Shown: positions 3,951-7,460 of the stretch, in pieces | Position numbering within the stretch: the stretch's first letter is position 1 | Layout: the number at the start of each line of letters is the position of its first letter | Source: a virus | Lineage: Duplodnaviria; Heunggongvirae; Uroviricota; Caudoviricetes | IMG/VR virus record: IMGVR_UViG_3300028888_000003 | DNA length: 27,706 bases | Direction: 5' to 3' (one strand) | Made by a program: the position numbers and the translations under genes | Notes under the pieces: generated by a model | What the model saw: only the letters and a program-made list of their open reading frames with translations | What the model was told of the DNA's origin: nothing | Database searches by the model: none

Positions 3951-4415
3951 ATGAAAGCAATTATTCCAGAAGTAGAGCAATTTAAACTTTATGACAAAGC
4001 AATTGCTAAAGACATAGAAGCAATCGCAGAACTTGCAAAATTTAATAAAGAGCATAGTGCTATGCATATTGGTATGGTTTATAATAACAGTGTTAAAACT
4101 CAATATCTTTTTCAGTTAATGAAGATTTATAATAGTTGCGTTAAGGGCTGTGTTGTCATTTATGTTGAAGCCAATAGAAAGAACTTTAAGCGATTAAAAA
4201 AAGAAAATCCTTCAATTAATTTAAAAAGGATTAATCTGTTTAATAAACCTAAAACATTATATGTAGTAGATCCCAAGTATTTAGAAACTTTAAATAAGGA
4301 TAATTTTTCAAAAGAAAGATTTTATACAGATGAATTGATTTTTGATATTTGGTATGCTTACTACGAACCTAAAATTGAAGAGGAAGTATTAGATGAAATA
4401 TCAGATTTACTGTGA
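3951..4415 (+). CDS. Hypothetical protein (154 aa)
   Basis: ORF track; strong RBS; TGA stop. Confidence 0.8.
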   Translation: MKAIIPEVEQFKLYDKAIAKDIEAIAELAKFNKEHSAMHIGMVYNNSVKTQYLFQLMKIYNSCVKGCVVIYVEANRKNFKRLKKENPSINLKRINLFNKPKTLYVVDPKYLETLNKDNFSKERFYTDELIFDIWYAYYEPKIEEEVLDEISDLL

Positions 4416-4839
4416 TGGTAGTTGCAAGATGAATGGTCGGGATGACGCTCGCGCACACTACGCATATGTCATATTAGATGAGAATGACGTACTTCTGCGC
4501 GAGCGCCATGGAGATTGCGATAAAAATACAAACAATGTTGCAGAAATGACGGCTATGCTTAAAGGCCTTGAAGATTGGAAAGAAAATTTTGGAAACTCTG
4601 TAATTGTTTATACTGACAGTGCATATATTAGTAATGCTTATAATCAACGTTGGATTGATAAGTGGGAAGTTAACGGGTGGATGACTGCTAATAGAACTCC
4701 CGTTAAAAATAAAGAATTGTGGATTGAACTCCAGAAATTTTTTAAAAATAGTAATGTGCAAATTGTGAAGGTTAAAGGTCATCAAGGCGTGATCTGGAAC
4801 GAATATGTTGATAAAATTGCTCAAGGAGGTGGTTTTTAA
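4393..4839 (+). CDS. rnhA: Ribonuclease HI
   Basis: YCDGS, TNNVAEMTA, VYTDSAY, WEVNGW...PVKNKELW and KVKGHQG..NEYVD motifs. Confidence 0.95.
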   Translation: MKYQIYCDGSCKMNGRDDARAHYAYVILDENDVLLRERHGDCDKNTNNVAEMTAMLKGLEDWKENFGNSVIVYTDSAYISNAYNQRWIDKWEVNGWMTANRTPVKNKELWIELQKFFKNSNVQIVKVKGHQGVIWNEYVDKIAQGGGF

Positions 4840-5387
4840 TGGATGGTGTTAATGTAGTAATAGTTAATGGCTATCCTCGCTAACGTGCGGGAAAAGATAC
4901 TTTTGTAACTTTTTGTCTTTGGGAGTTAAAAGAATATGGTTATGCAATTTCAACGGTAGATTCTATAAAAGAAATTGCATATAAAGCCGGTTGGGATGGT
5001 GAAAAGACACTAGAAGCAAGAAAAGCCTTAAGTGATCTTAAAGATATATTTAGTAAGTGGCTTGATTTGTCTTATAATGATGTTAAAAGAAAAATTAGAG
5101 TAATTGAAACAAATGCTAATTCATATGGATTAGATCCAAATCAATTCTTTTTGTTCGTACACTCGCGCGAGCCTGAAGAAATTAAACGATTTGTAGAAGA
5201 CTTTAATGCTATCACCGTTTTTATCGACCGCGCGCAGAACGACGTAGAATACTCAAATCATGCAGATGAAAAAGTAAAAAATTATGAATATGATTTTATC
5301 ATATCAAATGATAGTAGTTTAAGTCAATTACAAACAAATGCTAGGCTATTTTTAGCACAAATTAAAAATGAAAGAGGTATAAAATAA
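4839..5387 (+). CDS. Deoxynucleoside-monophosphate-kinase-like P-loop protein with an in-frame TAA at 4881-4883 (recoded gene or pseudogene)
   Basis: ATG overlaps the rnhA stop. MDGVNVVIVNGYPR*RAGKDTF continues in frame through STVDSIKEIAYKAGWDGEK, HSREPEEI and SNHADE...YDFIISND into track ORF 5067..5387. Confidence 0.8.
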
Positions 5388-5409
5388 ATTTTAAATTTGG
5401 ATGGATTTT

Positions 5410-5438
5410 CTATATTATCCATATAAATTTATTACTTA
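5410..5438 (+). promoter_or_regulatory. Candidate phage-specific promoter CTATA-N18-TACTTA
   Basis: TACTTA at 5433-5438, 16 nt before ATG 5455; the upstream box is a weaker match. Confidence 0.35.
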
Positions 5439-5454
5439 TATATGGGTGATGAAA

Positions 5455-6345
5455 ATGAGTAAAAAAATAGATATGACAAATTGGATAATGAAAGAACATG
5501 GGGTTCCAGATAGTAAGTGGACAGTTATAGATTATGCTGGAAATAGTAAATGGAATTGTGTTTGCGAATGTGGAACCCATAAAGCAGTTGCAGGTGTAAC
5601 TTTACGAAACGGTACTAGTAAAAGTTGTGGTTGTGATAGAGTAGCACCAAATTTAAAAAATGAAATTGGAAATAGATACGGCAGATTAGTTGTTTTACGC
5701 GAAGATGGGTTATCAAATGACAAACATAAGAAATGGATTTGTCGTTGTGACTGTGGAAATGAAGTTAGTGTAATAGGTAAAAATTTAAGAGCGGGTTTAA
5801 CAACTTCTTGTGGTTGTTATAGAGCAGAAAAAAGAACAGAACATAATTTTAAAGACTTATTTAATTAGACTTTTGGAAAATTAACTGCTTTAGAATGTAT
5901 AGGTAAAAATCAAGATAATCAATTTGTATGGAAATGTTAGTGCGAATGCGGATCAATAGTAAATGTTGTTGCTCACTATTTACTGAATGGAAATACAACT
6001 TCGTGTGGATGTAATAAATCCAAAGGCGAACTTAAAATTAAAAATATATTATTAGAAAATAATATTGAATTTAAATAGCAATTTACTTTTGATAATTTAA
6101 AATATAAAAGCCCACTAAAATTTGATTTTGCTATTTTTAAAAATAATTAGCTTTTATGTTTAATAGAATACCAAGGCATTTAGCATTATGATGAAAATAA
6201 TTTATGGTTTTCTGAAGAAAATCAAGTTAGAGATACTTTAAAAAAAGATTATTGTGAACAAAATAATATTTTATTAATTGAAATTCCTTATTGGGATTAT
6301 GAAGATATAAATTTTAAATATTTAAAGGAGAAATGTAATTTATGA
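5455..6345 (+). CDS. Free-standing endonuclease (296 aa): three CxC-G...SCGC repeats plus C-terminal Vsr/DUF559-like PD-(D/E)XK domain; TAG read as Gln
   Basis: 5 in-frame TAG (5866, 5938, 6076, 6148, 6181) fall in WKC[Q]CECG and IEYQGI[Q]HY; FDFAI and IEIPYW motifs; TGA overlaps the ligase ATG. The start is chosen from the GGTGAT RBS. Confidence 0.88.
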
Positions 6346-7460
6346 CTTGTAATATAAATGGAATAGATTGGATTAATTGCGAACCAATGCGATACTGGTC
6401 TTATCCAAAATCTTATAAAGGAGACTACAAGACGGAAATAAAAAATTATATATTTAGTGGAAATTATTGCGGCGCGCTCAAGCGTGACGGATATTATCAG
6501 AGATGCTGCGTTGATGAAAATGGACAAGCATATATGATTTCAAGAAACAAGTCTGTATCGGGTGAAGCAATTAATAAAATAGAATGGGTTCCTCATCTTA
6601 AACCATACTTTGATTCTTTACCCCCTAAGACGGTTCTTCTTTGCGAAGTATATCTTCCCGGTAATGAAGGTTCAAAGAAAATTACTTCTCTTCTTGGTTG
6701 CTTAAAAGATAAATGTATCGCTCGTCAAGAAGCTGATCAAAAACTTCACCTTTATGTATTTGATGTAATGGTATCAGATGGCAAGGATTTAACAAAAGAA
6801 GGAATGTGGGATAGAGCTGATGAACTTGATTTACTTTCTCGCGCTTATCCTAATCCTTATGTAGAATATGCAACTTATTATGATGGTGCAGAACTTTGGG
6901 AAAAACTTAATGAGTATCTTGCTGCTGGTAATGAAGGTATGGTAATCCATCGTAAAGATTGCCCCGTTTATTTTAAAAGAACTCCCGCACGTCAAACAAT
7001 TAAGGTCAAAAAAGAAATAGCTAATACAATTGATTGTTTCTTTACAGGCCGCGCGACCCAACCTAAAAAAGAATATACTGGAAAAGAAATTGAAACTTGG
7101 CCCTATTGGATGAATGTGGTTGCTGAATTAAAGCTACCTATCGATCCTATGGCGAATTATTATAAAGACTATGTTGAAGGTGATCCAATTATACCAGTAA
7201 CTAAATCTTACTATAATAATTTTGCAGGTAGCCTTGAAATTGCAGTATTAAAAGACGGAAAAATATTCCCGATTGGACTTCTCAGTGGACTTACTGAAGA
7301 AATTAAAAAAGACCCAGAAAAATATAAAGGGCGTTGTATCGAGGTTAATGCGATGGAGTTAGATCCAGAAGCACATTCACTTAGACATGCAAAAATGATG
7401 CAATTTAGAGACGATCTTACAATTAAAGATTGCACTTATGAAAAAGTATTTGGTGATTGA
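6342..7460 (+). CDS. ATP-dependent DNA ligase
   Basis: Motif I ALKRDG, motif III CEVY, YVFDV, motif IV EGMVI, motif V IKVKK, C-terminal SLRHA. Confidence 0.9.
   Translation: MTCNINGIDWINCEPMRYWSYPKSYKGDYKTEIKNYIFSGNYCGALKRDGYYQRCCVDENGQAYMISRNKSVSGEAINKIEWVPHLKPYFDSLPPKTVLLCEVYLPGNEGSKKITSLLGCLKDKCIARQEADQKLHLYVFDVMVSDGKDLTKEGMWDRADELDLLSRAYPNPYVEYATYYDGAELWEKLNEYLAAGNEGMVIHRKDCPVYFKRTPARQTIKVKKEIANTIDCFFTGRATQPKKEYTGKEIETWPYWMNVVAELKLPIDPMANYYKDYVEGDPIIPVTKSYYNNFAGSLEIAVLKDGKIFPIGLLSGLTEEIKKDPEKYKGRCIEVNAMELDPEAHSLRHAKMMQFRDDLTIKDCTYEKVFGD

Follow-up and report, generated by a model that had tools for sequence, protein, structure and literature searches.

How is a full-length enzyme made from a gene whose catalytic loop is cut by a stop codon? 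The question is raised by a putative kinase gene in a 27,706-nucleotide (nt) stretch of DNA, hereafter the window, which belongs to the IMG/VR record IMGVR_UViG_3300028888_000003, a complete 139-kb phage genome with terminal repeats (G000). Codons 11-21 of this gene are GGC TAT CCT CGC TAA CGT GCG GGA AAA GAT ACT and read, preceded by N, GYPR*RAGKDT. An earlier note on this DNA, made from the letters alone, had reported this reading, which our translation confirmed, and had proposed that a transfer RNA (tRNA) hops from CGC over TAA to CGT, giving GYPRAGKDT. Comparative data from related phages support that core proposal, and we consider it likely that the full-length kinase is made by a programmed +6 tRNA hop (a stop-hop), the ribosomal skipping itself being what we infer from them. 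The parts of the gene concerned are the following:

4839..4880, + strand: kinase open reading frame (ORF) part 1, 14 codons (MDGVNVVIVNGYPR), from translation and homologue alignment
4878-4880, + strand: take-off codon CGC, the last of part 1
4881..4883, + strand: in-frame TAA followed by C, the codon that would be hopped over, from the sequence
4884..4886, + strand: landing codon CGT (Arg), synonymous with the take-off CGC, from the sequence and from matched pairs elsewhere
4884..5387, + strand: kinase part 2 (RAGKDT... to TAA), from the sequence and the ORF list

Part 1 (MDGVNVVIVNGYPR) encodes the beta-1 strand together with the beginning of Walker A, and after TAA 4881-4883 the frame is open up to TAA 5385-5387, with one internal stop only. 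In 24 of 24 aligned homologues NG.P is followed directly by [RGQL][AS]GK, i.e., there are two residues fewer than in the window, and in 41 of 41 database proteins that include the N-terminus, G and GK are separated by four residues. The nearest uninterrupted relative, L001, has CCC CGA GCG at the position of the insert. Because the homologue spacing and the L001 sequence both lack them, the window carries exactly 6 extra nt, and their removal restores the Walker A spacing of GYPRAGKDT, as the earlier note had claimed and as both sets of relatives have it.

CCT CGC TAA CGT GCG is found unchanged in L003, L084, and L092, whose kinase genes are 72-82% identical to that of the window. L003 is a separate IMG/VR contig (kinase identity to the window 81% in protein and 82% in nt), L084 is the same strain as L003 from another metagenome assembly (100% identical over 2.4 kb), and L092 is an ENA scaffold that has the insert, with the C-terminal half of the kinase much more diverged. 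Because the same insert was found in other assemblies, an assembly artifact is ruled out. A scan of the whole of G000 for a stop flanked by synonymous codons returned 22 sites, and all but the kinase looked like ordinary gene ends or non-coding frames.

The proposed sequence of events is as follows. A ribosome would start at ATG 4839 and translate 14 codons; with peptidyl-tRNA-Arg on CGC (4878-4880) in the P site and the slow TAA in the A site, the anticodon would release, the messenger RNA (mRNA) would slip by 6 nt, and the same tRNA would re-pair on CGT (4884-4886), tRNA-Arg(ICG) decoding CGC and CGU alike. Decoding would resume at GCG (4887-4889) to give ...NGYPRAGKDT..., the Walker A of the uninterrupted relatives, with the junction peptide ...VNGYPRAGKDTF..., and terminating ribosomes would release a 14-residue peptide. 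We regard this reading as supported because the interrupted genes are under purifying selection, the flanking matched codons covary, no sense variants of the inserted codons occur, and one class of carriers (the genes with such an interruption) has a 7-nt gap.

Selection was assessed from the ratio of non-synonymous to synonymous rates (omega) and from synonymous divergence (dS). The window and L003 differ at 18% of nt, with 52 synonymous and 48 non-synonymous differences (dS 0.75, omega 0.16) and no lesion besides the shared stop; against L092, the two gave omega values of 0.14-0.21. L060 and L113, two carriers with 69% nt identity, gave an omega of 0.15 at a dS of 1.7. Values in the class IIIa carriers ranged from 0.06 to 0.36, the maximum coming from a pair that is 98% identical, with 10 differences, and the three class IV genes are 63-80% identical, with an omega of 0.05 for L288 against L289. 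The carrier kinases, on about 18 contigs, are otherwise intact, have no second stop or frameshift, and always keep GK[DT]T. All carriers preserve the amino acids of the beta-1 strand upstream of the stop, and conservation between them is highest over the first 76 residues. These data indicate that the carrier kinases are under purifying selection and are not pseudogenes. The earlier note had held that its proposal would fall if close relatives were uninterrupted and this copy showed relaxed selection; such relatives do exist, but the carrier omega is about 0.15.

Matched codons around a stop recur and covary across related phages, a point that the earlier note had suggested checking, with Arg, Leu, and Pro pairs. 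Among 80 kinase-family loci from IMG/VR that were inspected in a first survey, the distant homologues L060 (CCT CTT TAA CTT GCC) and L005 (CCT TAA CTT AGA) are interrupted at the same place. A pattern scan of IMG/VR for any six codons between the codons of NG and GK[DT]TF gave 35 matches, comprising 23 unrelated proteins and 12 kinase-family genes; an in-frame stop is found in all 12 of the latter, and a run of six sense codons in none. L113 has CTC TAG CTC where L060 has CTT TAA CTT, so that both flanks changed together and TAA became TAG, and we read the change from CTT/CTT to CTC/CTC as a compensatory double change. The Pro-flanked sites are CCT TAA CCA (L114, L116, and L135), CCT TAA CCT (L126), and CCT TAG CCC (L131, L132, and L264). 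Among these six-codon loci, the phages whose site holds TAG use the standard code. CCT TAA CTT occurs in L120, L005, and L110, which represent three lineages; CCT/CTT is a near-match in which a G.U pair is possible at the middle position, and tRNA-Pro(UGG), which reads all CCN codons, could pair with CUU in this way.

A further class was found among miscalled proteins starting MA.LDSRAGK. These class IV genes read AAT GGC TGC CCT CGA TAG T CGT GCG, with CGG as the landing codon in two others. MKVVVINGCPR and RAGKDT... are encoded in different frames at a distance of 7 nt, and Arg codons again flank the gap; the spacer is 4 nt (TAG T), and a hop would give NGCPRAGKDT. In every carrier the take-off codon is followed immediately by TAA or TAG, and removal of the gap (6 nt, or 7 nt in class IV) gives the family spacing GxxxxGK[DT]T. 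Flanks that differ only at the wobble position appear to fit re-pairing by one tRNA better than a mechanism based on nucleic-acid repeats. The best explanation of the whole set, ~18 phage contigs from no fewer than five or six lineages, would be that the window's device is one of at least four classes, three with a 6-nt hop (Arg, Leu, and Pro) and one with a 7-nt hop (Arg), which would pass between related phages as short segments of the 5' end of the gene.

Sampling of the set depended on the kind of search. L113 (class II, 66% identical to L060) surfaced only in the later pattern scan. A first pattern scan for Pro-x-TAA added only the chance matches L094 and L095; a pattern scan of contigs gave at least 119 chance matches, with no kinase-family carrier among the matches listed; and IMG/VR protein searches with L060 and L005 returned no further carriers. 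P0029 and P0035, two shortened database proteins, were rejected as carriers, their P-loops being intact and their starts miscalled. One chance match, L186:76-119 (- strand) on the contig JBJTQF010000372.1 of a Myxococcota metagenome-assembled genome, reads LVNGGISM*SGKTTFSKAL...IITIEDVHEL and resembles a secretion-type ATPase whose Walker A is interrupted by an in-frame stop.

The stop has to be considered against the code of the phage. ORFs of at least 100 amino acids (aa) cover 0.54 of G000 under code 11 and 0.85 when TAG is sense, and 131 of the 169 ORFs of at least 100 aa terminate at TAA, the main terminator; the claims of the earlier note that this genome reads TAG as sense and that TAA is still a real stop are thus both borne out. 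ARAGORN predicted eight tRNAs in G000 (Leu-UAG, Met, Glu, Phe, Asn, Gly, Trp, and Gln-UUG), located as follows:

cluster at ~133-134.5 kb of G000, plus 107.2 kb: tRNA genes (ARAGORN)

Among these eight there is no tRNA-Arg and no suppressor with a CUA anticodon that could serve as a phage-encoded helper. TAG recoding in G000 is clear, yet ARAGORN found no CUA-anticodon suppressor tRNA there. In G001 and G002, whose hop site holds TAG, the standard code applies and TAG genuinely terminates, so that the carriers include standard-code phages as well as TAG-recoded ones. The kinase gene of L110 (L110:4161-4691, IMG/VR 3300028833_000121) has eight in-frame TAGs at conserved positions plus TAA at the hop site; this phage is TAG-recoded, and two recoding layers would coexist in one of its genes. 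The class IV gene L290 (L290:300-330, ENA ERZ27297698 k141_844873) has TAG as its second codon (ATG TAG GTA), where relatives have AAG, and its phage probably reads TAG as sense, yet TAG is also the codon to be hopped over.

These data bear on plain readthrough, in which a near-cognate or suppressor tRNA would decode TAA (with a +1 frameshift in class IV) to give a loop, GYPRxRAGKDT, that is two residues longer. We consider it unlikely. It draws on the fact that termination is already unusual in a genome that takes TAG as sense, and on the C that follows the stop in classes I-III, a weak termination context in Escherichia coli. A tolerant loop should sometimes show two extra sense codons, and the extra positions are never sense, either in the 12 six-codon loci (0/12) or in the database proteins, all 41 of which have the four-residue spacing. 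Readthrough does not predict the matched flanking codons or their covariation, and it cannot join the two parts of the class IV genes because these lie in different frames, where a change of frame is required. Moreover, no suppressor tRNA was found in the phage by ARAGORN, and carriers occur in standard-code phages. For the window sequence taken alone, readthrough would still be a possible explanation; the products of hop and readthrough differ by two residues only (PMC5009743).

A signal in the RNA was sought around the stop, where two structures are predicted:

4874..4892, + strand: stem-loop UCC.CGC / GCGGGA with the loop UAACGU, proposed in the earlier note, the predicted minimum free energy fold
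4860..4874, + strand: predicted hairpin AUAGUU-AAU-GGCUAU, separated from the take-off codon by 3 nt (CCU), from a fold of 4851-4915

The first of these, in which the flanks of the stop pair, had been put forward as a take-off signal and did not hold up. Although it is the minimum free energy fold (-8.0 kcal/mol), it is no better than shuffled sequences (z = -1.1; 27 of 200 shuffles fold as well), and no counterpart was found when L060 and L005 were folded. For the upstream hairpin the picture is mixed, since it is enriched across carriers but weak in the window itself. When the 33 nt ending at the codon before CCU were folded for every distinct family member, the median was -7.4 kcal/mol in carriers against -1.3 kcal/mol in 56 non-carriers; the enrichment was significant on five lineage representatives (Mann-Whitney p = 5e-4), and a hairpin of -3.0 kcal/mol or lower was present in 5/5 carrier lineage representatives against 7/56 non-carriers. 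The class IV hairpins are of -4.5 to -6.2 kcal/mol. The geometry is constant, with the hairpin followed by CCU, the take-off codon (in classes I, II, and IV), and the stop. Formed from the beta-1 and NG codons, this 5' hairpin would refold behind the ribosome and would probably aid the forward slip, as proposed for gene 60 of phage T4.

The same hairpin could equally be the recognition element of an RNA enzyme, and the 6 nt might be removed from the transcript by some form of editing or splicing, or be skipped by RNA polymerase. Removal at the RNA level would also account for the conservation and the purifying selection and for a P-loop that is restored exactly. We nevertheless judge it decidedly improbable. 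It does not require a stop, whereas in the carriers one always follows the take-off codon immediately; the site has no homopolymer run for transcriptional slippage; the variation of the flanks at the wobble position fits tRNA pairing and not a nucleic-acid repeat; and excision of 6-7 nt is not known to us from any bacterial or phage system.

Several points weigh against the stop-hop itself. The hops of Weiss in 1987 reportedly had an efficiency of about 1%, and a useful yield is assumed here. Because ARAGORN found no tRNA-Arg in the phage, the hopping tRNA would have to be that of the host. The nascent chain has only 10-14 residues at take-off, which makes a nascent-peptide signal of the gene 60 type impossible. 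The pair CCT/CTT, found in three lineages, is imperfect, and the CGA/CGG of two class IV members falls outside the canonical reading of tRNA-Arg(ICG). The hairpin of the window is the weakest of the set (-3.0 kcal/mol in the 33-nt fold) and is common to the non-carrier L001. The matched codons could also reflect in part the origin of the insert (e.g., a duplication-type footprint) and not selection for re-pairing. Hops without stimulatory signals have been described as low-level (10.1101/2024.12.09.627546).

The evolutionary pattern is one of repeated gain or loss. A tree of 102 rows, built from the protein downstream of the P-loop, requires at least eight changes of carrier state, five of them forced by well-supported branches, and places the carriers in at least five separate groups interleaved with non-carriers; class IV is farther from the window than several non-carriers are. 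The class IIIa clade has eight carriers interleaved with six non-carriers, and their loci are colinear and ~93% identical. Here the difference between carriers and non-carriers is confined to about the first 60 nt of the gene, where 26 nt inserted in the carriers supply a Shine-Dalgarno sequence and a new ATG, and where the P-loop has its 6-nt insert as well. This 5' segment is identical in all class IIIa carriers, the rest of the gene differing by up to 18%. In the clade of the window, carriers start with ATG and their non-carrier relatives with TTG. Because the 5' segment is identical across carriers and ATG stands against TTG as the start, the hop-bearing gene start appears to behave as an exchangeable cassette with strong initiation signals. 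In the class IIIa carriers (L259:1440-1500) the old start survives as a mini-ORF of 7 codons (ATG ATA AAA GGG GTG ATT GAA TGA), whose stop overlaps the new kinase ATG and whose codons contain the new Shine-Dalgarno sequence.

Such a pattern could also arise if the gene were dead or dispensable and the insert were a neutral or selfish scar (a footprint or an anti-homing patch) spread by recombination, the frame being open only through recency. The interleaving of carriers and non-carriers, the 50-nt patch that differs between loci otherwise 93% identical, and the identity of ~30 nt around the insert among the class I carriers all speak for a scar, as do a GIY-YIG homing endonuclease adjoining the site in L092 and an intein in the same P-loop of L066 and L067. 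A scar in a dead gene should not coexist with an omega of 0.05-0.25 in comparisons of carriers that are at or close to synonymous saturation, nor with a GK[DT]T that is always retained and the lack of a second stop or frameshift in about 18 contigs. The stop also persists as a stop (TAA to TAG) as the adjoining codons covary, and the carriers tend to have the stronger starts (ATG against TTG, or a new Shine-Dalgarno sequence with a new ATG). We therefore hold this explanation to be very improbable.

Homing elements do occur at this gene. In L092:429-1350 (ENA ERZ28593764 scaffold_8915), a GIY-YIG plus NUMOD1 homing-endonuclease gene, itself with a TAG, lies between rnhA and the kinase start; upstream of it is a remnant of an older kinase start, AGA GTT AAT GTC CTT TAA CTT (NRVNVL*L), and downstream are a duplicated rnhA 3' tail and the hop-bearing kinase start. 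In L066 and L067 (IMG/VR 3300025748_000231 and 3300010351_000784; e.g., L067:2557-3408) an intein-like insert sits in the same P-loop, between GK and T of Walker A; it has the LAGLIDADG motif GLMDTDGSI and ends ...IVTHN, followed by TTFETMV. An endonuclease beside the kinase start is absent from the window, L003, L005, L060, and class IIIa, and is present only in L092. A simple rule that carriers have an endonuclease next door was rejected, since most carriers have none and the insert downstream of the window's kinase occurs also in the non-carrier L001. By way of hypothesis, the 6-nt insert may be a tolerated remnant or an immunity patch of homing-endonuclease or intein traffic; alternatively, it may keep the kinase output low or regulated.

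The start of the gene is tied to its upstream neighbor, as these features indicate:

4393..4839, + strand: rnhA (RNase H) gene, Pfam PF00075, E = 3e-31
4825..4829, + strand: Shine-Dalgarno sequence GGAGG, 9 nt before the kinase ATG, from a reading of the sequence

The kinase ATG 4839 overlaps the rnhA stop (TAATG), and with the open frame to 5385-5387 this upholds the description in the earlier note of a gene that is otherwise intact and coupled to rnhA. The order rnhA, kinase, (x), ATP-dependent ligase is kept in L001, L003, L005, L060, and L288. Part 2 has its first start codon of its own only at TTG 5067, and gene callers report from there a 106-aa ORF (P0004) and not the full kinase. This call underlies another explanation, in which the locus would make two products, a 14-residue leader peptide and an N-terminally shortened protein re-initiated downstream. 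We find it extremely improbable: the 106-aa protein would lack the P-loop and the first 76 residues, which are just the part best conserved between carriers; the stretch from the stop to codon 77 offers no start codon; and the conservation of the upstream beta-1 strand in all carriers is one of amino acids.

The family consists of phage P-loop kinases of about 170-190 residues. The window kinase matched DNMK (PF21448) with 21.7 bits, below the 27.1 cutoff, and 13 of 25 aligned relatives matched it at E <= 0.001 (best 2.9e-9). The PHROGs search with the window kinase and the contig search with the window's 106-aa ORF as the query gave no match, and the PDB profile matches were to generic P-loop proteins only. 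The best explanation is that the gene encodes a DNMK-type P-loop (deoxy)nucleotide kinase, the assignment and its substrate being putative. The ~960 nt of the window between kinase and ligase (5389-6348) are absent from L003, where the ligase directly follows the kinase, and a homologue of this downstream insert is present in the non-carrier L001. It holds an ORF (5401/5455-6345, + strand) that is TAG-rich, with repeated C.C.CG...SCGC motifs and weak matches to DUF2726 and DUF5889, and that is probably a free-standing mobile nuclease gene.

As a tentative idea, which we think possible but doubtful, the carriers would be natural, selected mini-bypass cassettes, with a strong start, a hairpin, and a stop-containing gap of 6-7 nt in Walker A, which spread because the gap deprives homing endonucleases or inteins of their target and whose output reports the state of termination. 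If so, ribosome hopping would be the price paid for a destroyed homing target, and dependence on release factors would make the kinase output a read-out of termination, a matter of interest in TAG-recoded phages. Should the link to homing be borne out, it would generalize the idea from T4 mobA and gene 60 that bypass inserts are immunity patches against selfish DNA. For annotation, such genes are called as truncated ORFs or pseudogenes, as the 106-aa call here illustrates. Hopping over stop codons has since 1987 been known from reporter constructs only; the kinase set would be a natural case of it and would offer a short and simple natural system for the study of take-off and landing without the elaborate signals of gene 60.

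The nearest precedent is the synthetic stop-hop. The sequence used in 1987 was reportedly CUU UAG CUA, which is close to CTT TAA CTT of the Leu class. As summarized in the sources cited, 9 nt specify one amino acid in E. coli (Weiss 1987, in PMC5009743; 10.1101/2024.12.09.627546), and, as proposed for the window, a peptidyl-tRNA re-pairs on a matched codon 3' of the stop (Weiss, Dunn, Atkins & Gesteland 1987; O'Connor et al. 1989). Those hops are described there as low-level and as taking place in reporter constructs without stimulatory signals, whereas the layout in the window is natural, conserved, and under selection, with a 5' hairpin enriched across carriers. A natural hop over an in-frame stop was not known to a review of recoding in 2016 (PMC5009743), and neither a natural 6-nt stop-hop nor an interrupted P-loop in a phage deoxynucleoside monophosphate kinase turned up in our full-text literature searches.

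Among natural systems, T4 gene 60 with MobA resembles the window in that an insert interrupts a phage gene for an essential-type enzyme (Huang 1988; Bonocora 2011; 10.1101/2022.08.31.505936). The gene 60 insert travels in a mobile segment and protects against the MobA endonuclease (10.1101/2022.08.31.505936), and refolding of a 5' stem-loop has been proposed to drive the forward slip (PMC5009743). The gap is of 50 nt with GGA codons in gene 60 and of 6 (or 7) nt with Arg, Leu, and Pro codons in the kinases; the 30-residue nascent-peptide signal of gene 60 is excluded in the kinases, where take-off is at codon 10-14; and the inserts have no sequence similarity. No HNH or MobA gene was found beside the window kinase, whose neighbors are rnhA and the TAG-rich ORF without an HNH match. 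The window, with its 6-nt gap, Arg codons, and 14 upstream codons, is not a member of the gene 60/MobA cassette, although it would work alike.

In the terminase of Streptomyces phage Hau3/StrepC.1, gaps of 10 nt and 7 nt are bypassed at a rare UUA, which a stop can replace in experiments (PMC10732093). This is likewise a short natural phage bypass at a slow A-site codon, and the shift of class IV is also of 7 nt; in Hau3, however, the codon is a rare sense codon and the frame changes, whereas the hop proposed for the window is in frame over a real stop, in another gene family and inside a catalytic P-loop. The byps of Magnusiomyces capitatus mitochondria measure 27-55 nt and have an unused codon in the A site (Lang 2014; Nosek 2015, in PMC5009743). 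As that summary presents them, they belong to mitochondrial translation and are not confined to one motif, unlike the kinase inserts. They would share with the kinases the many independent, short bypassed inserts, the behavior of mobile elements, and the making of a normal protein, and their take-off and landing pairs are not always perfect, like CCT/CTT in the kinases.

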